IMG/VR virus record: IMGVR_UViG_3300028591_000074
Coordinates: 160,001-224,000 of that record
Length of the DNA stretch: 64,000 bases
Source: a virus
Taxonomy: Duplodnaviria; Caudoviricetes
Strand: one strand, 5' to 3'
Below are positions 10,922 to 61,602 of the stretch, in pieces. The notes beneath the pieces are model-generated. The model ran no database searches. It was not told the origin of the DNA and saw only the letters and a list, made by a program, of their open reading frames with translations. Numbering within the stretch: position 1 is the first letter of the stretch; every line of letters begins with the position of its first letter. Made by a program: the position numbers and the translations under genes.

Positions 10922-11737
10922 TTAAATTTGTTGCAATCCTAATTCTTCGAGTGTACAATTACCACCCTGCCGTTCAGGAGCATTACCACCTAGTATTTCC
11001 GCTACATCAAAATCGTCAAGTAATTTATTTACACGTATTGCACCTGTGATTACCCATGGAACTGTATCAGGATTCGGATTTGTTCTATATCGATAATACC
11101 CATTCTTCGGTAATTTTGGAAGTCCAGCTAATGAGTGCTGGTATTTATCAGATCTATATTGGCTACCATCTGGGTTTGTTCTCATATATCCTTGTTCGTA
11201 TGCTTCGTCATTATAATCAATATCCATGACGTAATCGCACTCTGCCCAAATGAAATCATATGGAAAATATGGTGCGTTATTATCAACAACTTGTAAATAC
11301 TCATCAATGTCTTTTACATAGAATATTTTCCCAATGTTTGATTGTTTAGCAACAGAATTTATGAATGTTCTATAAGCATTTACAGTTTTAGATATCTCAG
11401 TAGAATCATCAATATCAACTATTTCCCAACTAAATGAACGATCAAATTGCTTTGCTCTTGGGATGTCACCAAGATGCCATCCAGGTCTATATGCCAAATC
11501 CCCACCGCCAGTAGACTTAACCTTCTTTCTACCAGTTTTTGACAATCCAGCAAATTCACCCTCTTCGGCATCAAGCCATACACCTACTGGTGTATCTTCC
11601 CCACCTGGATTTGCCACCATAGGTGGATACAATTTGCCATTCTTTATGCGAAACACTTTGTAAGCCTTACCTGTAACGGAATTTGAATAATCATTCGTGG
11701 AAATTCCTGACATAATCGGTCTTAAATATCGATACAT
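10922..11737 (-). CDS. hypothetical protein (LYPPM / YRPGWH motifs)
   Basis: likely start ATG 11737 after GAGGTG; N-terminus MYRYLRPIMSG. Confidence 0.65.
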   Translation of the reverse strand: MYRYLRPIMSGISTNDYSNSVTGKAYKVFRIKNGKLYPPMVANPGGEDTPVGVWLDAEEGEFAGLSKTGRKKVKSTGGGDLAYRPGWHLGDIPRAKQFDRSFSWEIVDIDDSTEISKTVNAYRTFINSVAKQSNIGKIFYVKDIDEYLQVVDNNAPYFPYDFIWAECDYVMDIDYNDEAYEQGYMRTNPDGSQYRSDKYQHSLAGLPKLPKNGYYRYRTNPNPDTVPWVITGAIRVNKLLDDFDVAEILGGNAPERQGGNCTLEELGLQQI

Positions 11738-46499: not shown

Positions 46500-46922
46500 T
46501 TAACCATATGTAAATGGTGGAACTTGATCACCCATATCACCGTCACCAAGGAAACCACTACCATTACTACGTACAAATCTCTGTGCAGAATCATATAACC
46601 AGTCAAGTTTATATCCTTGTGGATATTGGCTATCCATCTCCTCAAGAAGATCCATAGTCACAAGGCTTGCAAGGTCAATGGCATCTGATTTGTATTTTGC
46701 CATAATTGCACAATCCATCGGATTTTTACTCTGACCTTTAAACCATCGCCTTATTGCAGCTTTAGGATTGTTTGTATTTGAGGAGTCATATCCACAAACA
46801 ACTTTGTATTTGAATCCATTATATGGATCCCACTCTTCGTAACCTTCGTCTTCCAATTCCTCTAACCGTTCCGGTGACGCATCATACAGTATCTTTGTTT
46901 CACTTTTAATATATCTTTTCAT
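46500..46922 (-). CDS. hypothetical protein with MKRYIKS N-terminal tag
   Basis: ATG 46922, MKRYIKSETK. Confidence 0.65.
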   Translation of the reverse strand: MKRYIKSETKILYDASPERLEELEDEGYEEWDPYNGFKYKVVCGYDSSNTNNPKAAIRRWFKGQSKNPMDCAIMAKYKSDAIDLASLVTMDLLEEMDSQYPQGYKLDWLYDSAQRFVRSNGSGFLGDGDMGDQVPPFTYG

Positions 46923-46938
46923 AAACAATTACCCCATT

Positions 46939-47214
46939 CTACCAATGAACCATTTTCGGCTTAATGCCATTGTTCATAATTTCTAGTTCATCAACTACAT
47001 CATGCCAATCATCAACTTCAAGTCGCTTAACAATGCGTCTTTTGTACACAATTCTCCACTCACCATCGAGTTCATCTGCTTGCGCCCAGTAATATTCTTG
47101 ATCATCGTATGGCCTTGGCTTAGATATTTGATATACGCCAGAGTTCTCATACCATCTAAGGATATAACCCATGTACTCTTCATCAACAGTGGAACTTTTA
47201 ATATATCTTTTCAT
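46939..47214 (-). CDS. hypothetical protein with MKRYIKS N-terminal tag
   Basis: ATG 47214 after GGGAG, MKRYIKSST. Confidence 0.65.
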   Translation of the reverse strand: MKRYIKSSTVDEEYMGYILRWYENSGVYQISKPRPYDDQEYYWAQADELDGEWRIVYKRRIVKRLEVDDWHDVVDELEIMNNGIKPKMVHW

Positions 47215-47228
47215 ATTGTATCTCCCTA

Positions 47229-47573
47229 TCATTCATCTCTAATAATTATGTCATCTTCTGTAATATCATCTTCTGTGATTTCTTCAATACGGAATTCTCC
47301 ATAATGAAGAAGTACATCACCTTCGTTACCACCTTGAACAAACTCATCCGGATAAATAACCCAATCTGGATCATCTATTGGATGAATTGTCTCATATTCA
47401 TCATCCCATTCATACTTGTTTCCATCAAGGATTCTTGAATCCCCTATGGATACAAGATAATCAATAAGGATATCTGTCAGAGCACCATAGTCTGTAGTAG
47501 GTTCTTCTGTTTCAATAATATAACTATCCAACCATGCTGTACCTGTTCCGATATCTACTCGGTAAAATGCCAT
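47229..47573 (-). CDS. acidic hypothetical protein
   Basis: 114-aa ORF with GAGGA RBS. Confidence 0.6.
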   Translation of the reverse strand: MAFYRVDIGTGTAWLDSYIIETEEPTTDYGALTDILIDYLVSIGDSRILDGNKYEWDDEYETIHPIDDPDWVIYPDEFVQGGNEGDVLLHYGEFRIEEITEDDITEDDIIIRDE

Positions 47574-47588
47574 AACAATCCTCGCTCT

Positions 47589-48008
47589 CTAAATGTAATC
47601 AAAGTATTCATTATACTGATCATTTGTAATATAACCATTTTCATAGCACCAGTTAAGACCATCCAGTGAAGATTCTGCAAGGATTTCAAATCCATTTACT
47701 TCACCATTGTAATATGCTACATAGCCATAAGTTCCATCGTAGATGTATTCTACGAAATCAGCACCATCCTTAATTGCAAGTCTTTCTACAGCCTCACTGA
47801 TTGAAAGCAGTTCTGTGTGGTCATTGAACCATGGAGAATCGAAGAAATGTATGAAGTATAGTACACCATCATAATATTCACCAAATCCATTTTCTCTCAA
47901 AGCATCTTGCTGTTGTTCAAACAGAATCTCCATAGATTCTTCTTGATATGAATCTGAATTAAAATCCAAGGCAGAATTTTTGGTAAGTACTTCAAAATCT
48001 GGAACCAT
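47589..48008 (-). CDS. acidic hypothetical protein
   Basis: 139-aa ORF with GGGAG RBS. Confidence 0.6.
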   Translation of the reverse strand: MVPDFEVLTKNSALDFNSDSYQEESMEILFEQQQDALRENGFGEYYDGVLYFIHFFDSPWFNDHTELLSISEAVERLAIKDGADFVEYIYDGTYGYVAYYNGEVNGFEILAESSLDGLNWCYENGYITNDQYNEYFDYI

Positions 48009-48030
48009 TATAATACTCCCTTCATAATAA

Positions 48031-48318
48031 CTAACTAAATATATTAAAGGTTTTTCCTGCTACAAAGAAATGTTTCCAACTAATTTCGTTTGTTGTCCGA
48101 AGTGCAATATTCACTTCATCGTTATCTGTCTGATCTTCAATTGCGTGTACTATGTAGGTGCAATCATTCTTAATAAGTCCTACTGTATAAGTGTGACCGG
48201 AAACGAACCCACAGGTTGATCTTCCAACATAAGTCCGTGTTACATATTCGGATGCACGATAGTTGAAATCAGATTCATTCATATCACCAGATACAATGTT
48301 TGATTTAATTCTACCCAT
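48031..48318 (-). CDS. hypothetical protein (MGRIKSNIVSG...)
   Basis: likely start at the ATG just after the upstream stop. Confidence 0.5.
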   Translation of the reverse strand: MGRIKSNIVSGDMNESDFNYRASEYVTRTYVGRSTCGFVSGHTYTVGLIKNDCTYIVHAIEDQTDNDEVNIALRTTNEISWKHFFVAGKTFNIFS

Positions 48319-48319
48319 C

Positions 48320-48517
48320 CTAATGCACCACCTTATGAGATTCACGATATTCTTCCAGTCTATGAAGTCTGTAGCATACATAAGCACACAGAATTGCAAC
48401 TACCTCCTGAAGTACTGCCTGACCGAAACTGATGGTACCTACAATACAAGCACCTTCCGTACCGATAGCAAAAATGATTGCCAATACCATAATGATTGCA
48501 TAAATGTTCTTCTTCAT
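48320..48517 (-). CDS. small membrane protein
   Basis: two hydrophobic segments in 65 aa. Confidence 0.5.
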   Translation of the reverse strand: MKKNIYAIIMVLAIIFAIGTEGACIVGTISFGQAVLQEVVAILCAYVCYRLHRLEEYRESHKVVH

Positions 48518-48708
48518 ATTTACTTTACCCCCTTAAAATGTTTATTGCAAAGATACTCAACCCGTGTCATACCCTTTACATTAGATTCCAGAATACTTCC
48601 ATCCGGTAATGTAATCGTGTAGAAGTAAGACCTACCGATTTTATCATCCACTTCTATTCTTACATCATATTTCTGTTCAAGATCAATCCTATTCATATCT
48701 GCACCCCA

Positions 48709-50034
48709 CTACGAATTGACGTAATCAATGAAATTACCAATGGCTTCGATAACATCGTTGTCAGAAGATTCCCCCTTCTGTTCAATTGGATCTGAATACT
48801 TAATTCTGCACCTTGTGATCCATGTCTGCTTTACACCATTGAACTCAGAAAGTTTCTTAACTGTTCCTGTGATACTAATGAGATTCCGGAAAGTTCCATC
48901 CATCTGCTGCTCAGAGGATCCATAGATACAGTTGCTTGTATCCCACATAATCACATTACCGTTTGTATCTACTATTTTATAACGATGTGTGATACCGTAA
49001 TCAGTCTGCCAAGAAGTTACAACTTCATAAGAAGATATATTAGAAATTGTAATTCTTTGTCCTTCAGAACTGATATAATCAGATTCCGCTACCTCCTTAG
49101 CATGGGCTTCGTTACGAACACGTTTCGCTTCAAGAATACCCATCTGCTTGCGATAGTAAGAAACCATCGATACACAGTATCCTACATTCTTATTAGGGAT
49201 GTAATCGGATTCTGCGATAACCTTAAGGTTATGGAGATAATCGCTATTACTATCTACAGCCTTAATATAATTGATAATATCATTTGCAGAATCGTTAAGT
49301 TCCTTTGAAGTATAATCTGGATGGTATGTTTCGCGATAAGATTCGATTCGTTCAATATCAGACTTATGAAGTCTTCCACGGTGTGTATCATAAAGAATTG
49401 CATCAACAACTTCTGCTCTAGTTGTTGTCATACCAAACTCAGCAGCTGATGTAGGAACATATCCAAGATGATTTATAATATCAACTGCGTATCTAATCAG
49501 TTCATTTACTGACCAGTAGGAATCGCATCTGAAACCGCCGGAAGGTGCTTCACCCTGAATAAGTGCATCAAACATTGCAATATAGGATGCAGCCAACTCT
49601 GCACTATATCCACCAGTGAAATCACAAAGGCAGGATGATCCAACCTGCTTAAACTCATCAGTTTCCATATTATACACGATGTATGTATCTTTCCGGTGAC
49701 GCTTAGAGTTACAGTGTTCGCACTTAGGTTCGCAGGTACGGTATTCATCAGGAATCTCAACATCATCAGAAATCTTACGAAGGATGTTACCATGCTCATT
49801 AGAATGGTCGATAGTTGCTACGAACTTCCATCCATTGATTACAGCAGTACCCTCTGCTTCAACGATAACGTATCTCTGAATAGACTTTTCACCTTCGGAT
49901 TCAACTTCTACAAATTCCTCACCAACCTGTGAGTAGGAAAAATCACAACCATACTTAATGCACTTGTTATGAATACGAGTCAGTTTATGCTCAAGTCTCT
50001 CAATATTATCTTCATGAATTCTGAATGTTGCCAT
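48709..50034 (-). CDS. early hypothetical protein with CxxC and C-terminal OB-fold-like domain
   Basis: CEHC, QVGSSCL, ITGTVK...NGVKQTWITRC; GGAGGT RBS. Confidence 0.7.
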   Translation of the reverse strand: MATFRIHEDNIERLEHKLTRIHNKCIKYGCDFSYSQVGEEFVEVESEGEKSIQRYVIVEAEGTAVINGWKFVATIDHSNEHGNILRKISDDVEIPDEYRTCEPKCEHCNSKRHRKDTYIVYNMETDEFKQVGSSCLCDFTGGYSAELAASYIAMFDALIQGEAPSGGFRCDSYWSVNELIRYAVDIINHLGYVPTSAAEFGMTTTRAEVVDAILYDTHRGRLHKSDIERIESYRETYHPDYTSKELNDSANDIINYIKAVDSNSDYLHNLKVIAESDYIPNKNVGYCVSMVSYYRKQMGILEAKRVRNEAHAKEVAESDYISSEGQRITISNISSYEVVTSWQTDYGITHRYKIVDTNGNVIMWDTSNCIYGSSEQQMDGTFRNLISITGTVKKLSEFNGVKQTWITRCRIKYSDPIEQKGESSDNDVIEAIGNFIDYVNS

Positions 50035-50085
50035 ATGCTTACCTCCATCCTATTGGACTATTGATGTGATTTGCTACTTTTCTTA

Positions 50086-50114
50086 ATTATAACCCAAAAA
50101 AGATAACCTGTCAA
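50086..50114 (-). promoter_or_regulatory. sigmaA consensus promoter
   Basis: TTGACA-17 bp-TATAAT upstream of 50034. Confidence 0.75.
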
Positions 50115-50219
50115 CTATAACTTTATAAGTTTGTTAATAAACTTATCTTAAACATAGGATAAAAATATCCGAGAACTACAGGAACATTGTAATTCTCGGA
50201 CATAATTTAATACTATATT

Positions 50220-50828
50220 CTACAAATCAGGATATCTATCTTTGAACCTGCGCATAGCCTTTACATATCCGGCAGTAGTAGAATATGGTTCATACTCAGT
50301 AGCACATACATCAATATCTGTAGAACTAAGTACAAAGTCTTTCCCACAGATATTAGTAAAATATTCTTCTGCATCCTGCACTGTAGCATGATCAAACTGC
50401 ATATCTATATTTCCATTTGCATCGTAGTATCTACCAACAACATTCAGGGCATAATTCCTGGACTTATCCTGTGTAGGTGTCGTAATAAGTACTGCCTCTT
50501 GATCATATTTCTTACACCAGCTGACACCAAGTTTAATAAAGTCCTCTGTCCTATAACCATTATTTACAACACAAAATGTATCTTCGGTCACCCGGCTATC
50601 ACCAGTTTCTGGATCAGATTCAATATATCCACCAAAGGCCTTAATGTATGTTAAATCACTACTATGTATATCTGTTGCAAGTTCCTTATTTCTTCGCCTG
50701 TTTTCTTTCCTAGAATATTCATGACGAAACGCAGTAATAAACATACAATCATAGTTATTCATATAGTCAACTACTCGGCTAAATGACGATGCCATTACAG
50801 ATTGATTCGTTCTGACTAATTTTACCAT
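50220..50828 (-). CDS. conserved phage protein (SSxSR / ITAFR / YDQEAVL family)
   Basis: ITAFR, N..RNKEL, GGYIE, KKYDQEAVL motifs. Confidence 0.65.
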   Translation of the reverse strand: MVKLVRTNQSVMASSFSRVVDYMNNYDCMFITAFRHEYSRKENRRRNKELATDIHSSDLTYIKAFGGYIESDPETGDSRVTEDTFCVVNNGYRTEDFIKLGVSWCKKYDQEAVLITTPTQDKSRNYALNVVGRYYDANGNIDMQFDHATVQDAEEYFTNICGKDFVLSSTDIDVCATEYEPYSTTAGYVKAMRRFKDRYPDL

Positions 50829-50848
50829 ACTATCACCACCTAACTTTA

Positions 50849-51289
50849 TTAATTCTTCTGCATTTCGATTTTATCATAATACTGTTCCACCAAATCAAGT
50901 GCAGTTCCTATACCATCTTTAACACCAGAATCATATCGTTCATCACCAGATTCAATCACATACAGTTGTTCAAGATCTGTATAAATGTCTTGAAGCATAG
51001 ATAATGTATCTTCTGGTAAATCACTTTCAAAATGATCCATAAATTCAGAACTTTCTATTGGAACACGCTCACCGGACTTAAATTGCTCTTTCATAACTGC
51101 AACAAGTTCTGTCCATTCATGACAATCACCGCAATCATTTGCATCTGCAATATCTTCAATCGTAATATCATTTTCTTTTGCAAGCGAATGAAGTTTCATG
51201 ATATCCGGCATTGTAAGCGGTCTATTATGTATTGCATGATCATCAAGAATATTCATTATTTCATAATAAGCGATTATCTCTGGGTTCAT
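50849..51289 (-). CDS. hypothetical protein
   Basis: GAGGTG RBS before MNPEII; promoter motif at 51321-51332. Confidence 0.55.
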   Translation of the reverse strand: MNPEIIAYYEIMNILDDHAIHNRPLTMPDIMKLHSLAKENDITIEDIADANDCGDCHEWTELVAVMKEQFKSGERVPIESSEFMDHFESDLPEDTLSMLQDIYTDLEQLYVIESGDERYDSGVKDGIGTALDLVEQYYDKIEMQKN

Positions 51290-51336
51290 AGAAAACACCT
51301 CATTAACTACAATTATATTGATATACAAGGTTTCAA

Positions 51337-52041
51337 CTATTGATTAAATGGATGATCTGGTTCATGAAAAGATACAATAGATACACAATCCCCTGTTGAC
51401 ATATCTAAATCTAATTTAATATATATTTCCATATCAGTATGCATTATACCATCACGAGTAGTCCAATCTGAAACTTTATGAAATACAAGTAGGTCATCAC
51501 CAAACCAATCATCATCAGCCCCATGCATAGATTCAATGTAGTTATCTTCATAAGTAAGAGATTTCAAAACTTCCAGACATTCAGAAATCTTCAATTTACC
51601 ACCAGAATCTAAAACATAATCACCATTCCTGTCCTTACGTCGGCATATAATTGTATTGCAAGTTTGCAACTGGCTAAGAAAAAATTTAACATCTGACTCA
51701 TCTGTCAAAAATGTATAATCAGAATACCATCGTTTCAAAATATCCAACTGATCTTTAAGTAAACGCTCTGGGCAAATACGATTTAACCTATGAAGTAATT
51801 CTCCATCTGTAATCATAGCAATATCAAGATCCGACAGCTTCATAAGATTTTCATCAGAAAGGCGCATAAGTGTTTTTTCATTATCCATCATATTAAAGGC
51901 TTCATTATCAATATCTTCAGTAGCAGATATACTTCTTGGAAACATATTTACATTTTTACATAATTCAATATAAATAATCTGTTTTAATACATCCCTCAAA
52001 TGAAGCTGTGATTGCATATTAGATTTTACATAGATCTTCAT
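51337..52041 (-). CDS. protein with C-terminal MqsR/RelE-like toxin domain and MKIYVKS tag
   Basis: C-terminal LLVFHK...EIYIKL...VSIVSFHE; GGAGGT RBS. Confidence 0.55.
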   Translation of the reverse strand: MKIYVKSNMQSQLHLRDVLKQIIYIELCKNVNMFPRSISATEDIDNEAFNMMDNEKTLMRLSDENLMKLSDLDIAMITDGELLHRLNRICPERLLKDQLDILKRWYSDYTFLTDESDVKFFLSQLQTCNTIICRRKDRNGDYVLDSGGKLKISECLEVLKSLTYEDNYIESMHGADDDWFGDDLLVFHKVSDWTTRDGIMHTDMEIYIKLDLDMSTGDCVSIVSFHEPDHPFNQ

Positions 52042-52043
52042 AG

Positions 52044-52247
52044 TCAATTTACCTCCATATTTCTATTCTTATAATAATCTATAGCAGTTATAATATATTT
52101 ATTGACAGACATTCCATCAGACTTTGCAATCTCTTTCAATTTAGCATGTTCCCCATTTGGTAACATTATTGTAACCCGATCATATTTCCGCTTATTGTAT
52201 TTATTCTGATAGGAAATCCTATCAAATGTATTCTTTACATCTGACAT
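52044..52247 (-). CDS. Arc/RHH-like DNA-binding protein
   Basis: YNKRKYDRVTIMLP.GE...K..A...GMSVNKYI. Confidence 0.7.
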   Translation of the reverse strand: MSDVKNTFDRISYQNKYNKRKYDRVTIMLPNGEHAKLKEIAKSDGMSVNKYIITAIDYYKNRNMEVN

Positions 52248-52262
52248 ATCTTTCTACTCCTT

Positions 52263-52306
52263 ATTATAATAGATATTTATAAATGTGTCAATAGATATTT
52301 ATAAAT
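52263..52306 (-). promoter_or_regulatory. sigmaA promoter overlapped by two 16-bp direct repeats (candidate operator)
   Basis: TTGACA-17-TATAAT; ATAGATATTTATAAAT at 52269 and 52291. Confidence 0.75.
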
Positions 52307-52315
52307 TCACTAATT

Positions 52316-52518
52316 CTGACTGCTCCCACGGGCAAGCCCGTGGTGTTCTGACTACCAAGTGTTGCTCGTAATCGTACATCATTTTCAGACTTTGGAGTTA
52401 CAAGTATAAATCTGTTTGAATCAGGACTTTCATTACCAAGCAGTCCAACGACCACATTAGCGGTAAATTTCTGTCTTGTAACAAGGACGTACAGTCAATC
52501 GCCCTGAATATTTAGTTG
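52316..52518 (-). ncRNA. putative TnpB reRNA/omegaRNA region
   Basis: 200-nt non-coding stretch between the tnpB stop and the right end. Confidence 0.5.
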
Positions 52519-54129
52519 TTAAGCTACTTTGATTCCACTGTTTAATACTTTAATCTTATTAGCCTTAATCCATGTGATTAGGGCTTTTTCTTTTGCGTAG
52601 CACCTATCAAAATCTATATTGCATTTCTCTTTGTTTATGTCGTTTGTTTTGTAATCATAGCAGTAAAGCAAAAATGATGAATACCAATCTCTTTGCACTA
52701 AAGTTCCATCTCGAAGTTTGTAAAGTCTATCGGATAATTTCTTTTTGATATAATCATCAGCCGTATGGTCGTACTGGCTTGCTCTATAATTGTTCGGTAC
52801 TTCTATATATGCACCTCCTGAAACCTTGAATTTCTTTTCTACCGTGGTCTGGAATCCGCTTGGGCATCGGTTCTTTATGGATTTACCAAAACGCTTTTTC
52901 TTGTTGAATTTGCCTTTACTATTTTTAGTAGTTTCTTTGGCTCGTTTCATCAGCTTACTTGCATTTTTAGGCTCAGTTACAAAAACATTTCCAAGACTCC
53001 GTAAGTGATTTGCATCCTCATTTATAGCAAGCTGTCTGTTTACAGCGTTGATACGACATAATTCTGTATGTTTGGCTTTTAGTCTCTTATAATGATTTGA
53101 ATATTTCCAGGTCTTACGACCTTTCTTAATAGTGCCATCATCATTATAGTTCTGTGGATTAGTGGCTCTTCTTGACCTGTCCATAGCCCTGTAATACAGT
53201 CTTTCCAAATGCTCCGATTTCTGTATGCTGTTGCCACGTTCCGAAAGATTCTTAAGACCAACTTCAGTATCAGATGTATAGGCAACTGTCTGTGTTCCAA
53301 TATCAGCGCCTATTATGCCTTTACCATATTTATGTCTTGGATTACCGAATTTATCATATTTTGGTTTTGCCTTACCTTCTATGGTCAGATGCAGATATAC
53401 TCTGTACTTGCCTCTGATAATCTTAGGTACGAGAGTAGCATAGCATGGTCTGTATGTGTCTATACAAATAGCTTCTTCTAAAAGAATATTTACCGCTTTT
53501 GCATCTATAATCTCAGGTTTGGTAAGATATGACAGGACTGCATTCGCTTCATCCTGTTGAAACCTGTCGTTTAACTGCAATCCAAAAACTGTTTTTCCAA
53601 GTTTGAACCGTATCTTGTTATCCTTGACAGATATTGGGATGCCACGGTTTATCTGCTTTGCCCTAATACATGGAAGTTCTCCGTATTGTGAGAAATGAAT
53701 GCTTTTTCCGTTGCCATACAGACATTTCTCAATACCCCGCCATACGTCTTCGGCTTTAGTAAGAGCAAATATCGCATCAATGCCATATTTCTTGCCTATC
53801 GGTATCATGGATATACGACAAAAATCCCATGTGACGTTATATTTAGCCTGCATCTCGTTAAGTTGTCTGGCTAAATCTTTACGTTTATCCTTATCCTCAG
53901 TACCGCCATAAAGTTCACGCAATTTGCGATATTTCTTTGTACGCATAAGCTGGTCATGATTCTTTTTCATAAGACCTACAAGTTCATTGCCTGCTTTGCG
54001 GATCTTATCAGAAAGAGCCACAACCTTTATGACATCGGAATAAGACATATCTGTTTCTACAACTAAGATATGCCTGTCAGACAGCTTATGAAATTTCTTT
54101 AAAACTTTACTGTACTCCTCATCAGCCAT
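52519..54129 (-). CDS. tnpB: long TnpB-like RNA-guided nuclease (536 aa)
   Basis: RuvC-I IGADIG, RuvC-II FVTEP, RuvC-III VQRD; no C-terminal Cys4 zinc finger. Confidence 0.8.
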   Translation of the reverse strand: MADEEYSKVLKKFHKLSDRHILVVETDMSYSDVIKVVALSDKIRKAGNELVGLMKKNHDQLMRTKKYRKLRELYGGTEDKDKRKDLARQLNEMQAKYNVTWDFCRISMIPIGKKYGIDAIFALTKAEDVWRGIEKCLYGNGKSIHFSQYGELPCIRAKQINRGIPISVKDNKIRFKLGKTVFGLQLNDRFQQDEANAVLSYLTKPEIIDAKAVNILLEEAICIDTYRPCYATLVPKIIRGKYRVYLHLTIEGKAKPKYDKFGNPRHKYGKGIIGADIGTQTVAYTSDTEVGLKNLSERGNSIQKSEHLERLYYRAMDRSRRATNPQNYNDDGTIKKGRKTWKYSNHYKRLKAKHTELCRINAVNRQLAINEDANHLRSLGNVFVTEPKNASKLMKRAKETTKNSKGKFNKKKRFGKSIKNRCPSGFQTTVEKKFKVSGGAYIEVPNNYRASQYDHTADDYIKKKLSDRLYKLRDGTLVQRDWYSSFLLYCYDYKTNDINKEKCNIDFDRCYAKEKALITWIKANKIKVLNSGIKVA

Positions 54130-54535
54130 GGTTTTTCTGTCCCTCTATGTATTTGATTACCGTTGCTTCGCTTATATGACCTACCGTTGATACAAAATAT
54201 CCTCTTGACCATAATACGCCGCATCTTGTATAAAACTGTTTGAGTTGCGGGAATGCCTTAAAAAGCTCAATAGCGCATATACTTTTAAGAGTTCTTACTA
54301 CATCGCACGGAGCGACTGTCTGCGGAACATCCACGAATATATGTATATGGTCAGGCATCACTTCAAGTGCCTTAATGCGATAGTTATAATCATCGCAAAT
54401 TCTTTGAAGTATCAGTTTAAGTGTATCCTCAACATCGCCTCTTAAAACTGAAAATCTAAATTTAGGACACCAGATGATATGATACTGTATCAGATATTTG
54501 CAATATGAAGCACTATGATATTGCTCCTCGCTCAT
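54122..54535 (-). CDS. tnpA: IS200/IS605 Y1 transposase
   Basis: YHIIWCPKFR, MPDHIH (HUH), LWSRGYFVSTVG, KYIEGQ. Confidence 0.95.
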   Translation of the reverse strand: MSEEQYHSASYCKYLIQYHIIWCPKFRFSVLRGDVEDTLKLILQRICDDYNYRIKALEVMPDHIHIFVDVPQTVAPCDVVRTLKSICAIELFKAFPQLKQFYTRCGVLWSRGYFVSTVGHISEATVIKYIEGQKNHG

Positions 54536-54710
54536 CGTCCTTAACTCCTAATTGATATTTTTCCTGAATACCCCTCCGCATTAGGTCAAGAAATGTTATT
54601 GTTTCGCCTTCCTCAACAGAATAGATACGTGCAAGGTTTTCAAGCTGTGTCTTCCACTCAGAAGGAATGGAAATGTTAATCTGTACGTTGTCACTCTTTG
54701 GTCTTGCCAT
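54513..54710 (-). CDS. CopG/RHH-like regulator (IS passenger)
   Basis: VQINISIP..WK..LE.LA...DLMRRGI. Confidence 0.6.
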   Translation of the reverse strand: MARPKSDNVQINISIPSEWKTQLENLARIYSVEEGETITFLDLMRRGIQEKYQLGVKDDERGAIS

Positions 54711-54714
54711 GAAT

Positions 54715-55167
54715 TTATCCTTTCTGCCACACCTTTAATAATTCACCTGCGGTAAAGTCAGGTTCTAACTCAAAATTTTTGAGCATTTCTTTTACCTGTT
54801 TTGCATCAAACTTATCGTCAGGACTCCAAGTGCCTTTTGCTATTTCAAAAGCCGTATCATCCATTGCCTTAACAAATGATTTATGTTCTTTCATCCATTG
54901 TTGAATATGCTTCTTTTTAGCAAGTTTTTCTTTGTCATTGCTTTTATCCCTTGTTTTGTAAGCATACGCAGAATAGGCTTTCTGTGCTGTTTTATATCCG
55001 TAGCCTTGTGCATCATCTAAAACTTCACCTGTATCAGTTGATACGATACAAAACCGTGTTTCAGAAGTATCATAGGCAGGTTCATTATTCCAAGGTTCAT
55101 CATTATCGACAACGGCATCATGATGAGTTGTGACTTTATATGGAACTGCTTTATATGTAGAACTCAT
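54715..55167 (-). CDS. hypothetical protein (IS passenger)
   Basis: TGEVLDDAQGYGYKTAQKAY motif; lies inside the element ends. Confidence 0.6.
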   Translation of the reverse strand: MSSTYKAVPYKVTTHHDAVVDNDEPWNNEPAYDTSETRFCIVSTDTGEVLDDAQGYGYKTAQKAYSAYAYKTRDKSNDKEKLAKKKHIQQWMKEHKSFVKAMDDTAFEIAKGTWSPDDKFDAKQVKEMLKNFELEPDFTAGELLKVWQKG

Positions 55168-55391
55168 GTATATCTTCCTTTCTAAAATATTTTATACATA
55201 GATTATATATTTGTTCTATGATAATGTCAAGTAAAAATTAAAACCATGTCGAAATATGGTTTATTGAGCAGTTGTCGCAAATACAGGCAGCTTTCATCCC
55301 ACACGCAAGCGTGTGGGTTTTACGCCGCAATTTATAACGATTTAACAAAACTAAAAACACCCATGATATGTTCACAGGTGTTTTCATCAGA

Positions 55392-55658
55392 TTAATCCTC
55401 TGCGGTTTCTATGTTATCATCATACCGTTTCATAATTTCTTGGAGAACTTTTGCGTGATTAAGTTCATCAGAAATAATTTCACGAACATGATCCACCGCA
55501 TCAGTGTCACCTTTAGATTCCAAGAATGGAATTAATTTCTGATATCCTTCAATGGCATCCCACTCACCTTCGATATTGATAGCAATTTGCGCAGCTACTG
55601 TCTGATCATCATTTACGTCAAAGACTAAACCATCAGATGCTTTTATATATCGTTTCAT
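55392..55658 (-). CDS. ferritin-like (ExxH) protein with MKRYIKAS tag
   Basis: EWDAIEGY...EIISDELNH helices. Confidence 0.65.
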   Translation of the reverse strand: MKRYIKASDGLVFDVNDDQTVAAQIAINIEGEWDAIEGYQKLIPFLESKGDTDAVDHVREIISDELNHAKVLQEIMKRYDDNIETAED

Positions 55659-55674
55659 ATCAATATGCCCCCAA

Positions 55675-55896
55675 CTAAATCTTGTAATTTGTATATTCTA
55701 CTTCCATGCTGGAATTATTTACTTCTCCGCAATATGGACAAATATCATAAGACATATCTTTAAAACCAGAAATCTGTGTTTCCATTTCCTGTTTATATAG
55801 CTTATGACAATTTGGACATGTTACCTTTTCAAAGTAATAAGATACACCTTGTTCCGATAATTCCTGTTCAATAAGTAATTCAGAAACTCTACCCAT
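55675..55896 (-). CDS. zinc-ribbon protein
   Basis: CPNC...CPYC. Confidence 0.6.
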   Translation of the reverse strand: MGRVSELLIEQELSEQGVSYYFEKVTCPNCHKLYKQEMETQISGFKDMSYDICPYCGEVNNSSMEVEYTNYKI

Positions 55897-56026
55897 ATAT
55901 ACTCCCCCAATCTAGAATGTAGTTTATTATAATATCATGTTAATAAATTATCTTTTACAGTAATCAAATCACTATAGAAATCATATAAATAACCATTATG
56001 TTTGAAAAAAAATAAGTATGTAGTAA

Positions 56027-56287
56027 TTATTCAAAACTTATTTCTTTCAAGATATGTTCTTCGTGTGTATCAAAATCATATGAAGTAACTATCAATTTGC
56101 TATATAATTCCTGAGACACAACATAACCATATTCTGAATCATCTGTAAGCATATCTATATATTCATTTACTTCAGACATATTTCGGAATTGCTGTATTGA
56201 GTCTATCTCGCCAGACTTATCATATAGTGTCACATCATATAGAATTGTCGGCAAATATCCAGAATTTGATTTCACATATCGTTTCAT
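56027..56287 (-). CDS. hypothetical protein with MKRYVKS tag
   Basis: GGAGGTG RBS, MKRYVKSNS. Confidence 0.6.
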   Translation of the reverse strand: MKRYVKSNSGYLPTILYDVTLYDKSGEIDSIQQFRNMSEVNEYIDMLTDDSEYGYVVSQELYSKLIVTSYDFDTHEEHILKEISFE

Positions 56288-56297
56288 AATACACCTC

Positions 56298-56603
56298 CTA
56301 TGTCAATAAATTATCTTTTACAGTAATTAGATCATCATGTACTTCTGTAAGTGTTTCTACAGATACATTTGGATTACTAAGTACCGAAATATCTTTATCT
56401 AATAATTCGTCTATCTGTGAAGATTTAAACCGGATTGAATCATTACTTAATTTTTGATCAGCATATTCTTTTCCGCTTTCAAGTAATGTGATTGCATAGA
56501 AAAGTCCCTTTACGAACCATGTTTCCGCTACACGGTTAGAATGTTCAAAATCTTCAAGTTTTGCCTTTAGTTGACAGATTGCTTCGTTGGTTTCATAATA
56601 CAT
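56298..56603 (-). CDS. hypothetical protein
   Basis: GGGGGA RBS before MYYETN. Confidence 0.5.
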   Translation of the reverse strand: MYYETNEAICQLKAKLEDFEHSNRVAETWFVKGLFYAITLLESGKEYADQKLSNDSIRFKSSQIDELLDKDISVLSNPNVSVETLTEVHDDLITVKDNLLT

Positions 56604-56671
56604 TTTTGTATTCCCCCCAATCAAAATATAATTTCCTACAATTTAATCTGCAAGTGCACTTTCAACAATAT

Positions 56672-57607
56672 TTATTCTCTATAACTTACACGCAGCGAAC
56701 AAACTGGACATCCATCACTTGCTTGGAAAATCTCGATAAAGTCGGGATCATCCCACTGAATTTCTACATCAGAAAACTTTGTATTTCTATTGAAGTATCC
56801 CACTGTATCCTTAAGATAGTTGAACAGTTCTTCTTCAGTTGTATCATCTGAAATCCAAATCTTCTCTTCTACAACTGTTTGGTCATTTACTTCCCAACCA
56901 TCTTCTTCGTTACCCCATACATCGAAGTAATCAATGAGATCAAAATATTTTCCGGGATCATTATGACCTACGCAGTTGATTATTGTTGAAGAATTGACAT
57001 ATTTATCATAACTAAAATCTTTCGGTTGTTTCTCTTTTGCCATATCTAAATAATGATCTGCTTTTTTAAGATCACCATTCGAAAAGAAGTCTATAATCTT
57101 CTCTGCCCAACGAATTGGTACAGGAAAATAATCACCGGATCTATCCGTATAAAGAACATACCCATCATCTAAATAACGCATAGTGCAAAAATTATCACTA
57201 TAGTACAATTCATCACGTTTGTAATCATTATGACCTACGCAGTTGATATTAACAGCTGATTCTACAGAAGAACCATTTTCAAATTCATCTGCTTTAAGAA
57301 CATATTCGTCAATAAGGTCTTGAACATTATTTGGACGAATTTGACTATCAATGGCACGTACATCATCAAGAACAAGATCGAAGTAATCTTTCCCATAACG
57401 ATCATAAACATCCTTAAACTCCGGAAGTAACTTATCTGCCGGAATACCTGCATTATAAAGTGTATCTGCGATGTCAACAAGTTTTTCATGTTCATCTGTA
57501 AGATATGATCTGCTAACATCAGCGTAATCACGAAGAATTACCAATTCACTTACAAGATCATAAGGAATTTTGCGTGAGTCACTAGAAGCCTTTACATACT
57601 TTCTCAT
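56672..57607 (-). CDS. multi-module protein with MRKYVKAS tag
   Basis: AGGAG RBS; INCVGHND linker occurs twice (23-bp DNA repeat). Confidence 0.65.
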   Translation of the reverse strand: MRKYVKASSDSRKIPYDLVSELVILRDYADVSRSYLTDEHEKLVDIADTLYNAGIPADKLLPEFKDVYDRYGKDYFDLVLDDVRAIDSQIRPNNVQDLIDEYVLKADEFENGSSVESAVNINCVGHNDYKRDELYYSDNFCTMRYLDDGYVLYTDRSGDYFPVPIRWAEKIIDFFSNGDLKKADHYLDMAKEKQPKDFSYDKYVNSSTIINCVGHNDPGKYFDLIDYFDVWGNEEDGWEVNDQTVVEEKIWISDDTTEEELFNYLKDTVGYFNRNTKFSDVEIQWDDPDFIEIFQASDGCPVCSLRVSYRE

Positions 57608-57634
57608 AATATTATCTCCTTCACAGTATTTTAA

Positions 57635-58594
57635 TCACGATTTGAAATATAAGAATGGAAACTCATACCACCATACATGGTCAATATTATCAATAAATCT
57701 GCTAATCATAGATTTATTATCTAAATGATCTACGATCCATTTAGAAACATCATTTACTCGGAGATACAGATCATCAAGATTATGACCATGACCGTGATGG
57801 TCAATATCTTCCGGCTTCATATACTTTTTTACATAATCAAAAACTTCATCTACATGGATAACTGTATCATCCGGTAAATCTGTAATTCTTGCAACATCTG
57901 TGGAAGATTTAACTGCATACTTTCCGTATTTACGGGCAATAGAATGTTCCATAGTTTCCCCATTTGCGAGTATATCATATTCTTCTTTTGTAAGATAAAC
58001 GCCCTTTCCGGAATTAGTTACGCCATAATAATAAGGGAGACCTTGTGAAATATTGTATTTCTTCTCAAAATCAATGGTTTCACCATCATACATAATAGGG
58101 TTTGTTCCATCAATATCGTCATCACGATACAACACGTACCCGGAACCGTCATCAATAATCTTTCCACCATATGAAAGATATCTTACACCATTGTCTAACA
58201 AATTCTGAAGATCAATAACAATAGTAGATGCCTTTACATATTTCTTCATATTACTATCTCTCCTTATATTACTCGAAGCCTTTATATTTTTCGGATTACT
58301 TAATATGTATTCCTGAATACTATTCAATGATGTATTAGTATCAAATTTCCATGTAGGATTGCCAGTATGAGAATTCCAACCATAAGAATCTGTTTCTGCA
58401 TCTTGAATAAATTTATTATATTTTCTTCTCGCAGAAGACTTGTTGGATGTAGTTAATTCATCTACCGGATTACCTACAGAACCATCTGAATTTAACATTC
58501 CAATCCAAATATTATATGTTCCATAGTCATTCACATCTACTTCTATATAATATTTACCGTATTCTGCACTTTGTATAAAAAACCAATTTTGCAT
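57635..58594 (-). CDS. multi-module protein with internal MKKYVKAS tag
   Basis: internal ATG 58249 with its own AGGAG; linkers IKAS, VKAS, VKSS. Confidence 0.65.
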   Translation of the reverse strand: MQNWFFIQSAEYGKYYIEVDVNDYGTYNIWIGMLNSDGSVGNPVDELTTSNKSSARRKYNKFIQDAETDSYGWNSHTGNPTWKFDTNTSLNSIQEYILSNPKNIKASSNIRRDSNMKKYVKASTIVIDLQNLLDNGVRYLSYGGKIIDDGSGYVLYRDDDIDGTNPIMYDGETIDFEKKYNISQGLPYYYGVTNSGKGVYLTKEEYDILANGETMEHSIARKYGKYAVKSSTDVARITDLPDDTVIHVDEVFDYVKKYMKPEDIDHHGHGHNLDDLYLRVNDVSKWIVDHLDNKSMISRFIDNIDHVWWYEFPFLYFKS

Positions 58595-58598
58595 AGGA

Positions 58599-58943
58599 TT
58601 ACCTCATACCATTAGTATTGTAATATTTATCACCGTGATCATCTAACCAATCAAAAATTTCTGAAAAGAAGTTCCTCGTTTTAGTGCTAGATTCAGCTTC
58701 CGTCCAATATTCTGCTGAATGAGCATCCATCCATTCATTTGTCCACGGTTCTTCGTCATCAAAATCCCTCGCATATGTCGGATCATCATCTACAATTACA
58801 AGATCATGATATGGATATATACTAGCCATAAAAAATTTTCCATTTTTCAATGCCCCAATGAATGTATCACCATTATTCTCAATCCATTTAATATCATCTT
58901 TAGTATAAGTAGTCTGGTTTGAACATCTTATATATCTTTTCAT
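58599..58943 (-). CDS. hypothetical protein with MKRYIRCS tag
   Basis: AGGAG/AGGT RBS. Confidence 0.6.
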   Translation of the reverse strand: MKRYIRCSNQTTYTKDDIKWIENNGDTFIGALKNGKFFMASIYPYHDLVIVDDDPTYARDFDDEEPWTNEWMDAHSAEYWTEAESSTKTRNFFSEIFDWLDDHGDKYYNTNGMR

Positions 58944-58975
58944 AATTACCTGTCTCCTTTGTATTATATAAAAAT

Positions 58976-59167
58976 TTATTCTGATTTAAGCACCTTAAAA
59001 TCCCAATAGGAATCTATAGGCTGTCTTGTGCATCTAAGTTCTTTTTCAACATAATCCGGTGGAAGAATTAAATCATCAAATACTCTTTCGGCATAACTTC
59101 TATTGTCAGTTACAAAGCATACCCATTCAAAATCATCTTGGGCGATAAATACGATAAAATAATTCAT
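58976..59167 (-). CDS. hypothetical protein
   Basis: 63-aa ORF in the operon. Confidence 0.45.
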   Translation of the reverse strand: MNYFIVFIAQDDFEWVCFVTDNRSYAERVFDDLILPPDYVEKELRCTRQPIDSYWDFKVLKSE

Positions 59168-59176
59168 AGTATATAC

Positions 59177-59401
59177 CTACTTTCTAAAATCATCTGGAGT
59201 AAATACAACGAAATTCCAGAAAAATTCAATGTAACCATCATCTAAAAGTTCGTCCATCTCCTCAAATGTTGCAAAAACAACTACTCTGCGTTTATCTTTG
59301 AGCATAACATCCCAAAATGTTCTGCCATCATCAAAATAAGGATATTCACTGTTACTTAAAGCAGCTTTGACTGGTTTTAATAGTTTCTTCACTTTAGACA
59401 C
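59177..59401 (-). CDS. hypothetical protein
   Basis: 74-aa ORF downstream of promoter motifs at 59411-59448. Confidence 0.5.
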   Translation of the reverse strand: MSKVKKLLKPVKAALSNSEYPYFDDGRTFWDVMLKDKRRVVVFATFEEMDELLDDGYIEFFWNFVVFTPDDFRK

Positions 59402-59456
59402 CTCTATATACTATAACGATTCACAAGCCTATATTACTATTAAAGGTTAAACTAAA

Positions 59457-59492
59457 AATAGAACTCAGCAGTTTAATTGTTGAGTTCTATTT
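59457..59492 (-). terminator. terminator closing the minigene array
   Basis: AAATAGAACTCAGCA...TGTTGAGTTCTATTT hairpin, T-run on the minus strand. Confidence 0.7.
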
Positions 59493-59649
59493 CTAATACA
59501 AAAGAATCTTTCTGTACAGTTGTAAGTGCATTTGCTACTCCATCAAAACTTGGTTCTAACCGTTGTTCGAGATAGATTCCAGGAGTACGGTCTGATGGAT
59601 TTTCTGGGTTTCTGCCACGCATAGCACATGAAAAATATAATTTAGTCAT
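59473..59649 (-). CDS. C5-MTase variable-region-like module 8 (58 aa)
   Basis: AMRGRNPENPSDRT...EQRLEP..DGVANALTTVQKDSFVLE. Confidence 0.7.
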   Translation of the reverse strand: MTKLYFSCAMRGRNPENPSDRTPGIYLEQRLEPSFDGVANALTTVQKDSFVLEIELNN

Positions 59650-59650
59650 C

Positions 59651-59776
59651 TCAATCACCAAAATAGATCACAAGAAAATCCATTCTACCAGAACGAAAAG
59701 CTGGTGCATAGTCATTATAGAATCTTGCGTTTCTGACCGTTGCATATGTATCATCAACTATCCACATCTGAATCAT
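59651..59776 (-). CDS. C5-MTase variable-region-like module 7 (41 aa, not in track)
   Basis: MIQMWIVDDTYATVRNARFYNDYAPAFRSGRMDFLVIYFGD; ATGA overlap with module 6. Confidence 0.6.
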   Translation of the reverse strand: MIQMWIVDDTYATVRNARFYNDYAPAFRSGRMDFLVIYFGD

Positions 59777-59967
59777 CTATCACAACCCCAACTATCATCT
59801 ACTTGTATCACAACCATTGGAACTCTGCCACCGCCTTGAGAAGTTGTCAATGATGGACAAAAATAAGCTGGATCCCAAACATTTCCGGCATACCCGGTTC
59901 CAAACTCTTCATTATATATATTAGCAAGTTTCCTTACATTGAATTCCAATACCTTTCCACCATTCAT
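59773..59967 (-). CDS. C5-MTase variable-region-like module 6
   Basis: LANIY...GYAGNVWDPAYFCPSLTTSQGGGRVPMVV; start at 59967 (ATG) or 59949 (TTG). Confidence 0.7.
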   Translation of the reverse strand: MNGGKVLEFNVRKLANIYNEEFGTGYAGNVWDPAYFCPSLTTSQGGGRVPMVVIQVDDSWGCDR

Positions 59968-60121
59968 ACACTGCAACATTTGCAAATCCATACCCATGTC
60001 CTGCACCACCATAAACAATAGCCGGAAATATTCCATCAGTATTGACAACAATACCTCCTTCGGAATTACCTGTGCTATAATTACATATTGTTATTATTCT
60101 GTTCGTATCTTGATTTATCAC
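59921..60121 (-). CDS. C5-MTase variable-region-like module 5
   Basis: IITICNY...EGGIVVNTDGIFPAIVYGGAGHGYG. Confidence 0.6.
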   Translation of the reverse strand: MINQDTNRIITICNYSTGNSEGGIVVNTDGIFPAIVYGGAGHGYGFANVAVYEWWKGIGIQCKETC

Positions 60122-60253
60122 AAATAAGTACCGCCGTTACAGTTCCATGATTTTCTTTGACACATGGCGCAACCCCCCCCCACCCACAGAAACAATTCTT
60201 GAAGCATCATGGTTGCTGAACATATAATTTCCTAAAATGATAATTTCATTCAT
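60081..60253 (-). pseudogene. module 4, frameshifted at a G9 tract (60173-60181)
   Basis: MNEIIILGNYMFSNHDASRIVSVG[G9]VAPCVKENHGTVTAVLI is in frame with G7 or G10. Confidence 0.7.
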
Positions 60254-60410
60254 CTTCACACCAAACTAATACAAATGGTTTATTCCCACCACCCTGCATG
60301 GTTAATATCGTAGGAGCTAAACCATTTGGATCATATAAATCTCCGCGTCCACCAGTAAAATTTGTAGGATTATTGTAAACGAACCCTAACCGAATTATAG
60401 AATCATTCAT
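60246..60410 (-). CDS. C5-MTase variable-region-like module 3 (54 aa, not in track)
   Basis: MNDSIIRLGFVYNNPTNFTGGRGDLYDPNGLAPTILTMQGGGNKPFVLVWCEDE. Confidence 0.75.
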   Translation of the reverse strand: MNDSIIRLGFVYNNPTNFTGGRGDLYDPNGLAPTILTMQGGGNKPFVLVWCEDE

Positions 60411-60566
60411 CTTCATCTCTTACCAAAATAAATAATTTTGCACCAGTTATAATTGTGGTCATCAATGAAGGGCAAATTCCTCCAGAATCATAGGTAGATC
60501 CATCATATCCGGCTTTACATTTACCGGATACCCCCCCCCTAAGAATATGATCTTAAAATTATCCAT
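60403..60566 (-). pseudogene. module 2, frameshifted at a G9 tract (60531-60539)
   Basis: MDNFKIIFL[G9]VSGKCKAGYDGSTYDSGGICPSLMTT... is in frame with G7 or G10. Confidence 0.7.
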
Positions 60567-60733
60567 CACTCACCACAACCCTTATCGGAGTTTTGAAATC
60601 TCTTGCACATAGACTTGGAGATACCACCCCCCCCCGATGAATAAATATAACACCATTGATGCATTTTTCCACTATCATTCTCCGGAAGAAGTAATCCAAC
60701 TGCCAATATTTCGTTTTGTTCAGATAATATCAT
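60559..60733 (-). pseudogene. module 1, frameshifted at a G9 tract (60627-60635)
   Basis: ...ILAVGLL...MHQWCYIYSS[G9]VVSPSLCARDFKTPIRVVV is in frame with G8 or G11. Confidence 0.7.
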
Positions 60734-60780
60734 TGAATCTTCTTTCTGTATTTTTCGTTCCGTACCATTACTTCATGAGC

Positions 60781-61326
60781 CTAAGATATGATTTTGTCAA
60801 TCTTTTCAAATGCAAAAATATAAGATTCGAACTTTTCTCCATTAACAAGAATTTGATCTCGCATAGGTTTGGTTTCTAATCCACCAAGCCTATCAGATAG
60901 TTTCTGTTCTTGTTTTTTCTTCTCCTTCTCAGAATGATCAGTTCTATGTGCCGTATGCGTAGCAATTCTAAGCGTGAAATCAAAATCAATGATAACTAAT
61001 CCATCTTTAGATTTAGCAAGCATTCCGAGATAATCAGAATAATAATCAGATTCATTCTTATAGTACACTTCCATCTTATAAAAGCGTTCAGCTAATTCAA
61101 CTATAGAATCTATAAAATTATGATACCGTTCGATTTCTTCTTCGGTGTATTCAGACTTAGGTTCACCCGAAATAACAGAACCATCCGGAACATTTACATC
61201 TTTATAAGTTGTTGCGGCAATATTAGTATCGGTATCCCCATCAAATTCAATATTAACAATAACATTTACATGTGTTGTTGTAGGTTCAGCATCTGTCGTT
61301 TCTTCAGTTTTAATATATCGTTTCAT
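60781..61326 (-). CDS. hypothetical protein with MKRYIKT tag
   Basis: MKRYIKTEE...NIAAT...FTLRIATH. Confidence 0.6.
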   Translation of the reverse strand: MKRYIKTEETTDAEPTTTHVNVIVNIEFDGDTDTNIAATTYKDVNVPDGSVISGEPKSEYTEEEIERYHNFIDSIVELAERFYKMEVYYKNESDYYSDYLGMLAKSKDGLVIIDFDFTLRIATHTAHRTDHSEKEKKKQEQKLSDRLGGLETKPMRDQILVNGEKFESYIFAFEKIDKIIS

Positions 61327-61529: not shown

Positions 61530-61602
61530 AAGTATATCCTCAACAATATAGTAACACATATACTAATATATGTCAATCGTAAATGTACTACATATAATTA
61601 AA

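Follow-up and report, generated by a model that had tools for sequence, protein, structure and literature searches.

A short N-terminal peptide shared by unrelated proteins of a rumen phage and its likeness to T4-type capsid-targeting leaders

According to Mullaney & Black 1996 (as cited in PMC9958956), PMC8442874 and PMC3012670, phage T4 carries a capsid-targeting sequence (CTS), MKTYQEFIAE, of ~10 residues on its internal proteins IPII and IPIII, which is cut once by the protease gp21. The CTS loads internal proteins or foreign proteins alike (PMC8442874, PMC9958956, PMC3012670). T-even internal proteins are diverse and have only the leader in common, one of them being an injected anti-restriction protein (PMC3012670), and those of T4 are highly basic (PMC8442874). 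In addition, gp21 removes its own first nine residues (PMC9958956). Here, we describe a comparable tag, a peptide of 7-8 residues with the consensus M-K-[RK]-Y-[IV]-[KR]-[SAC]-[SAN], found at the start of otherwise unrelated proteins of a rumen phage. The window that we analyzed is a stretch of 64,000 nucleotides, bases 160,001-224,000 of the 253,527-bp virus record IMGVR_UViG_3300028591_000074; coordinates refer to this window unless they are given as genome positions.

On every feature testable from sequence, the system works like the T4 CTS. In both cases, a short N-terminal leader sits on otherwise unrelated proteins of one phage, the cargo would be non-essential, and the last residues of the leader match the resident protease's cut motif (a motif that is predicted here). 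Both phages also have a gp23-family capsid protein and a gp21-fold protease. At the level of residues, only the M-K-x-Y start and an aliphatic P3 (the third residue before the cut) agree, which is too short to prove common descent. The two systems differ in leader length (7-8 residues here, 10 in T4), in the residue before the cut (P1; putatively Ala, Ser or Cys here, Glu in T4), and in the number of proteins involved, with 33 tagged proteins here and 7-22 in relatives as against T4, where cleaved N-terminal peptides occur on three internal proteins and on Alt. Finally, the protein bodies behind the leader are acidic here and basic in T4.

The proteases of phages phiKZ and SPN3US cut after Glu, at an [S/A/G]-x-E motif, and to our knowledge no single short N-terminal tag shared by their head proteins has been described. 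Many proteins are loaded into these heads, and their propeptides are clipped by a T4-related prohead protease (PMC5694885, PMC7411985, PMC10052503), with eight cleaved head proteins in SPN3US (PMC7411985). The phage described here is likewise large and would likewise load many head proteins, but Glu is rare where its tag would be cut. In phage P1, the Dar proteins are loaded through an ordered protein-protein pathway (Hdf, DarA) that uses no shared peptide tag. Their role is in anti-defence, and they travel inside the capsid to reach the cell together with the DNA (PMC9024508, PMC12810830). Capsid-borne proteins delivered with DNA may be common to the two phages, whereas the shared peptide tag is found only in ours. 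A literature search for "MKRYIK" gave no match.

A shared N-terminal peptide on unrelated proteins

A six-frame scan of the window with the pattern M[KR][KRI]Y[IVL][KR] returned nine starts, all on the minus strand, and none besides these on either strand; from a rough composition estimate, fewer than 0.1 would be expected by chance. They are the nine starts that an earlier note on this DNA had listed, each found where that note placed it. Eight of them lie 1-14 codons past an in-frame stop and have a GGAG-type ribosome site 6-9 nucleotides upstream. The ninth, at 58249, is internal to an open reading frame (ORF; 57635-58594) and has its own AAGGAGA ribosome site. When the search was extended to the whole genome, the same pattern gave 29 starts and a slightly looser one 33, every one of them on the coding strand. 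The estimate of about 10 tagged proteins in the earlier note is borne out for the window and is an undercount for the genome, in which ~8% of genes (about 1 in 12 proteins of the 253-kb genome) are tagged. The tagged starts cluster at genome positions 1-15 kb, 67 kb, 144-145 kb, 207-221 kb (the cluster within the window), and 237-251 kb.

The consensus was derived from 92 instances, taken from the phage genome and four relatives. By position, the counts are M (92), K (88), R (54) or K (28), Y (90), I (75) or V (15), K (56) or R (30), S (41), A (31), C (9) or T (6), and S (44), A (23) or N (9). With Lys2 in 88 of 92 and Tyr4 in 90 of 92 instances, the M-K-[RK]-Y half is as strongly conserved as the half that follows it. 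Glu is scarce at the tag end, being absent from the residues listed for position 7 and found in only 3 of 92 instances at position 8. From residue 9 onward the sequence is variable, and residues 9-12 are polar or acidic.

The codons behind these residues vary freely. Arg3 is encoded by AGA, CGA, CGC, CGT, or AGG, Tyr by TAT (57) or TAC (33), Ile by ATT, ATA, or ATC, and Ser7 by codons from both the TCN and the AGY families; the Lys wobble position is also free. As the earlier note had reported, the first two tags (46922 and 47214) have 21 identical bases in common and the remaining ones differ at synonymous sites; ahead of the nine starts, the DNA shows no relationship. Given this codon variation and the unrelated upstream DNA, selection acts on the peptide, and the tag is a peptide-level feature rather than a DNA element. 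Conservation purely at the nucleotide level, which the earlier note had raised as the outcome that would speak against its proposal, is ruled out, since the codons vary and the peptide is fixed. In addition, a search for a hydrophobic core (at least 10 residues after a basic N-terminus) found none in the tag, which consequently is not a Sec, Tat, or lipoprotein secretion signal.

All tagged genes of the window lie on the minus strand and were identified by the tag scan. They encode proteins of 140 residues (46500..46922; MKRYIKSE, followed by an acidic body of no family), 91 residues (46939..47214; MKRYIKSS), 234 residues (51337..52041; MKIYVKSN), 88 residues (55392..55658; MKRYIKAS, followed by a small helical body with weak ferritin-like matches), 86 residues (56027..56287; MKRYVKSN), 311 residues (56672..57607; MRKYVKAS, with an internal repeat and an internal YVNSS motif), 114 residues (58599..58943; MKRYIRCS), and 181 residues (60781..61326; MKRYIKTE). 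The variant MYRYLRPIMSG, which the earlier note had placed at 11737, is also present; it starts a 271-residue protein adjoining the head genes (10922..11737, minus strand; MYRYLRPIMS↓G, where the arrow here and below marks the putative cut), and MYRY-type leaders (MYRYIKAS, MYRFILGA) occur in a further locus, L168.

The bodies that follow the tag are acidic and soluble-looking. By BLAST, the nine window bodies are mutually unrelated, and only the 55658 body has paralogs, located elsewhere in the genome. Their isoelectric points (pI) range from 4.06 to 4.75 for all nine, so the description of the bodies in the earlier note as unrelated and mostly acidic holds. Genome-wide, 82% of tagged bodies have a pI <5, compared with 44% of all proteins. 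The 33 bodies stripped of their tags form only 8 BLAST pairs, most of them between the two diverged end regions of the genome. Outside the window, some tagged genes at genome positions 1-15 kb have diverged counterparts at 237-253 kb (five pairs, 46-90% identity), which suggests either an old duplication or diverged terminal repeats.

Known families are nearly absent from this set. None of the nine window proteins has a confident Pfam or PHROG family, the 55658 protein having weak ferritin-like matches only. A set of 91 tagged proteins, drawn from five genomes, includes two with a convincing Pfam match (DUF5662 and a BspA-type leucine-rich repeat) and seven with PHROG matches, the latter all of unknown function. 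Because of these numbers, an "effector" role of the tagged proteins is a guess. A search of the ESM Atlas with the 311-residue protein gave nothing usable. Separately, the gene at 50220..50828 (minus strand), which was not counted as tagged, encodes an S-adenosylmethionine-lyase-like body (Pfam PF23780, 1e-10, match from residue 29) preceded by 28 extra N-terminal residues with VMA↓SS, a non-canonical leader that reads MVKLVRTNQSVMA↓SS. This protein may be cargo as well, and it may be an anti-restriction enzyme.

The ninth start belongs to a composite protein. Its 319-residue ORF (57635..58594, minus strand) consists of an untagged 105-residue N-terminal module, IKA↓SS, a spacer of 8-9 residues, the internal MKKYVKAS (58249), and a 197-residue body. 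The in-frame fusion is kept in 15 of 15 homolog clusters, in which the body past the internal tag is swapped. The arrangement could yield nested products, as with herpesvirus UL26/UL26.5, or it could be a two-part precursor that is processed. More generally, Y-[IV]-x-[SAC] occurs 15 times inside tagged bodies as against 4.9 expected (~3-fold), and in a 185-residue protein at genome position 144542, the motif stands where a module begins that one relative (G005) encodes as a tagged protein of its own. These internal motifs would fit the processing of multi-module precursors, which we offer as a lead only.

The head protease and its candidate cut motif

In one protein of 507 residues, the phage combines a head maturation protease (residues 1-~160) with a coiled scaffold part (8897..10420, minus strand; PHROG 207, 3e-21; Pfam S77, 6e-5, below the cut-off). 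A structural model of residues 1-166, with a mean predicted local distance difference test (pLDDT) score of 86.5, has T4 gp21 as its best fold match (5jbl; template modeling score 0.65, E value 7e-6). The next fold matches are the herpesvirus proteases of pseudorabies virus, human cytomegalovirus, herpes simplex virus 2, Kaposi's sarcoma-associated herpesvirus, Epstein-Barr virus, and varicella-zoster virus. The likeness to gp21 was seen by fold search; when the protease sequence was compared with the PDB, nothing relevant came up. In the comparison with a Ser-His-His triad, two candidate residues, His66 and Ser121, are invariant in 28 protease homologs. The remainder of the protein past the protease domain is coiled and scaffold-like. 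The adjacent gene (7311..8849, minus strand) encodes the major capsid protein of the T4 gp23 family (Pfam Gp23, 1.6e-16), with a propeptide of ~95 residues ending AVTA↓ATNT. The nearest cultured phages have ~25% capsid identity, and a DNA search with the structural region against cultured phages gave no match.

Four observations point to one candidate cut motif for this protease, [IV]-x-[AS(G)]↓[AST(G)]. The capsid propeptide is varied in length and sequence, yet it ends in [IV]-[TMN]-[AG]↓ATNTxNI in 50 of 50 relatives, and conservation starts at that point. The scaffold part (residues 155-507) holds 10 copies of [IV]-x-A-[AST] where 1.1 are expected, a count reached in 0 of 1000 shuffles, and the capsid propeptide holds 4 loose motifs where 1.2 are expected; the mature capsid protein has zero strict cut motifs. 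In an alignment of 28-43 homologs, [IV]AA↓S[TS] is conserved at residues 161-164, directly past the protease domain, and VTA↓STSV is conserved ~45 residues from the C-terminal end of the protease-scaffold protein. Most protease N-termini also have [IV]-x-[AS] at residues 6-11. By these motifs, the protease would be specific for a small residue.

The end of the tag, [IV]-[KR]-[SAC]↓[SAN], matches this candidate motif. The earlier note had proposed a T4-like label cut after Ala, Ser, or Cys rather than Glu; in its favor, the phage's own T4-type protease has a predicted motif that the tag end fits, with a small residue in the place of T4's Glu. As such, the protease encoded at 8897..10420 is the putative cutter of the tag. 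At the sites in the capsid and scaffold proteins, nothing like the M-K-[RK]-Y half is seen. A complex prediction with protease residues 9-160 and the 88-residue tagged protein scored 0.01, was run without controls, and speaks neither for nor against binding.

Herpesvirus assemblin, whose cut sites have the form (V/L/I)-x-A↓S, provides a second point of comparison. In pseudorabies virus, assemblin (pUL26) has the sites YLQA-T and VQA-S, used for release and maturation (PMC4498786). The phage protein resembles assemblin in its protease fold, in its fusion to a scaffold, and in having one putative site past the protease domain and another near the C-terminal end. At the motif level, the tag, read as Y-[IV]-[KR]-[AS]↓[SA], resembles the release site in its P4 Tyr, aliphatic P3, Lys or Gln at P2, Ala at P1, and Ser or Thr at P1', the residue after the cut. 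The systems differ in that P4 Tyr is found here on the cargo tags and not at the protease's own sites; moreover, the specificity on the phage side is a predicted one. Herpesviruses are not known to place such a site, in the manner of a leader, on numerous cargo proteins.

Spread among relatives and genomic neighborhood

The tag is modular and clade-specific. In 50 IMG/VR loci, the capsid protein is 58-81% identical to that of this phage. Five whole relatives have 7-22 matches each to the codon pattern of the tag, on the coding strand throughout, as against 0-1 for a reversed-pattern control, and a stricter tag pattern finds 81 IMG/VR stretches, many with several tags. In four relatives, homologs were found for only 8 of the 33 tagged proteins, which indicates that the tagged set turns over quickly. 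The tag itself is retained in orthologs with 31-46% body identity. The 46922 protein has the tag in 12 of 12 homologs (40-97% identity), with large insertions and deletions directly behind it; the 57607 protein has an ortholog in G005 (66% identity) that starts MNKYVKASS; and the 61326 protein has a homolog in another relative, G003 (31% identity), that retains MKRYIKSN. Tags are also found on parts of proteins. A G005 homolog of the C-terminal half of the 52041 protein starts (I)KRYIRTS, and the C-terminal module of one two-module protein stands alone in a relative with the tag attached directly.

The 55658 body illustrates this modularity further. It is a widespread small domain, of which 52 single-domain representatives were compared: 6 have an Ala-type tag, ~14 have an [IVL]-x-E leader (MIKIIKE, MILNE), and 32 are leaderless, many of the last starting 2-8 residues ahead of the conserved core. 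That the same body occurs with an Ala-type tag, with a Glu-type leader, or with neither suggests that the leader is an add-on whose last residues fit the local protease.

A Glu-type capsid junction is seen in more distant phages. When the N-terminal regions of the capsid proteins are aligned, the column that holds AVTA↓A here holds L/M-x-E↓S/T in GXN1, HSE3, LIS04 (three cultured phages), and G006, an uncultured contig of 20.8 kb (IMGVR_UViG_3300024486_000800, loci L167 and L191). In the cultured phages GXN1, HSE3, and LIS04, there are zero matches to the tag pattern and no recurrent leader. In G006, with Glu at the junction of its capsid propeptide, the first nine residues contain [IVL]-x-E in the products of 20 of 30 genes (as in MKILxE, MIIKLNE, or MIVKE), and no gene has an Ala-type start; the background of such starts in the rumen phage is 49 of 424 genes (Fisher's test, 3e-11 against G006). 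Judged by these sequences, the G006 leader appears to be what the tag is here, in a Glu-type form and on a still greater proportion of genes, and leader end and protease type appear to vary together. A scan with the G006 protease for more Glu-type relatives gave one distant contig, without a leader family, and a viral scan plus one metagenome scan with P0023 gave only the 20.8-kb contig, one Ala-type contig, and short fragments.

Upstream of the genes, two recurrent motifs look like two promoter classes. Motif L, AACCTT[TG]TATA (AACCTT[TG]TATA[AT]T), is a candidate late promoter with 25 coding-strand occurrences and 1 on the other strand at >12 bits; it sits 37-62 nucleotides before structural genes, including those for a tail chaperone, fiber, and head proteins. 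In the window, it is found on the minus strand at 46443, 41640, 21460, 17814, 10861, 59446, 51334, and 11785. It precedes the 59401-55392 cluster and several clusters outside the window, and a late-type promoter motif stands 48 nucleotides upstream of the variant-leader gene at 11737. Motif E, AAATCGTTATAAT, precedes replication-type, integrase, and Cas12f genes, and the two motifs stand side by side at 59446/59421. Perfect TTGACA-17-TATAAT promoters are also present at 52291-52263, 55230-55202, and 50114-50086.

Several other features neighbor the tagged genes, all on the minus strand. An IS200/IS605-type TnpA and TnpB pair lies at 52519-54535 and a second TnpB at 61672-62922; after each TnpB element comes a small ribbon-helix-helix-like ORF (52044-52247 and 61329-61559, respectively) and then, directly, a tagged gene. 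Small ORFs with a common ...GGG..P[MF][IV][LV]... motif and no Pfam match are found at 59473-60733 and 63716-63998, adjoining a fragment of an N6/N4 DNA methylase (63074-63649); these ORFs either constitute a small family or are pieces of a gene that has been repeated. At 45397-46381, directly before a 1231-residue tape-measure-like gene, two overlapping ORFs without a Pfam match look like a pair of frameshifted tail assembly chaperones.

Explanations of the tag and their meaning

We consider it somewhat probable that the tag is a T4-like leader for capsid targeting and cleavage, with a herpesvirus-like Y-[IV]-K-A↓S cut site. In this mechanism, the second half, [IV]-[KR]-[SAC]↓[SAN], would be the substrate site of the phage's own gp21-type prohead protease, which in this clade would cut after a small residue (Ala or Ser) and not after Glu. 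The first half, M-K-[RK]-Y, would most likely be the address that brings a protein into the scaffold core of the prohead, because tagged proteins alone carry it and the sites in the capsid and scaffold proteins lack it. Once the prohead is assembled, 7 residues would be clipped off by the protease, leaving in the head the bodies, mostly small and acidic, which would later exit with the DNA. We infer cleavage, capsid loading, and injection from sequence comparison, and we hold the narrower claim, that the tag is probably a head-protease substrate, with higher confidence than the full mechanism.

Several findings weigh against this reading. The tag at 58249 is internal rather than N-terminal, and the G005 homolog of the 61326 protein is without a tag. 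The bodies are acidic, whereas the T4 internal proteins are basic. In addition, the cut motif shows no depletion in tagged bodies (9 copies, 6.0 expected), although proteins that meet an active protease as cargo might be expected to have few such sites. The small-residue specificity of the protease is itself a prediction from conserved motifs, and the Glu-type comparison with genomic context comes from one 20.8-kb contig. Finally, the promoters of tagged genes divide into 17 of motif L, 13 of motif E, and 3 sigma-70-like, as against 142, 158, and 45 for other genes. Since tagged genes are split much like all genes, promoter context does not place them clearly with the late genes.

Some of the same findings would suit a tag that is a processing site only, cut by the head protease or another one for activation or timing, with bodies that are neither retained in the capsid nor injected. 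All the evidence concerns the cut motif and none of it packaging, the acidic bodies show no shortage of cut motifs, and about half of the tagged genes lie behind a promoter motif that also precedes replication genes. We nevertheless regard this explanation as rather unlikely. T4 gp21 is active only inside the assembled prohead (PMC9958956), so that a cut would imply a location inside it, and M-K-[RK]-Y is conserved like the cut site yet absent from the capsid and scaffold sites, which suggests a second function beyond cleavage. It is improbable, in turn, that the tag resembles a protease motif by chance and is in fact a signal for a chaperone, for degradation or stability, or for some other phage structure. 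Although the P4 Tyr, not seen at head-protein sites, would favor such a signal, the leader end tracks the inferred specificity of the resident protease in two clades, the small-residue motif is found at the capsid junction in all 50 relatives, and the missing hydrophobic core argues against secretion.

Explanations at the nucleic acid level fare worse. Ala-type (MKRYIK) and Glu-type (MIKIIKE) leaders are both built from A/T-rich codons, as would be expected if early codons for Lys, Ile, Tyr, and Arg (AGA) kept the mRNA open for efficient initiation. Such a translation-start effect is very improbable, however, given that the order of residues is fixed (Tyr4 in nearly every instance) and the codons vary to include the G/C-richer CGA, CGC, TAC, and ATC, that positions 7-8 need small residues (GCN, TCN, AGY), that only ~8% of genes are tagged, and that one copy is internal and kept in 15 clusters. 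Least credible of all is that the tag serves as a DNA-level joint for recombination and the swapping of gene cassettes. Homology between relatives does break directly behind the tag, and the first two tagged genes have 21 identical bases in common; against this, most copies differ synonymously and are identical over short runs only, conservation does not extend into the flanking DNA, and the peptides of the tag copies resemble one another more than would be predicted from the identity of their DNA. A capsid-targeting leader would be compatible with cassette swapping at the tag, which may be its by-product.

A broader proposal goes beyond this phage, and we put it forward tentatively, as a possibility that we do not favor over its negation. 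Among T4-type phages of gut Firmicutes, short N-terminal leaders may form a general code for capsid loading that is specific to each clade, with the leader end co-evolving with the specificity of the head protease. The present clade would have moved from Glu to a herpesvirus-like Y-[IV]-K-A↓S rule and would load ~30 uncharacterized, mostly acidic, fast-swapping proteins (~8% of genes), injected as a first-wave kit for anti-defence and host takeover.

If the capsid-targeting reading is true, an 8-residue rule would be enough to recognize which proteins the large uncultured phages of this clade, from gut and rumen, bring into the cell along with their DNA. There would be dozens of carried proteins per genome, almost none of a known family, and they would be immediate candidates for a first wave of anti-defence and host takeover. 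The tag could also become a tool for packaging foreign proteins in capsids, a use to which the T4 sequence has already been put. Moreover, the clade would be a natural case of a T4-type head protease changed from the Glu rule to the herpesvirus Ala↓Ser rule, and its substrates, readable from the genome, would bear on the relation between phage and herpesvirus capsid maturation.

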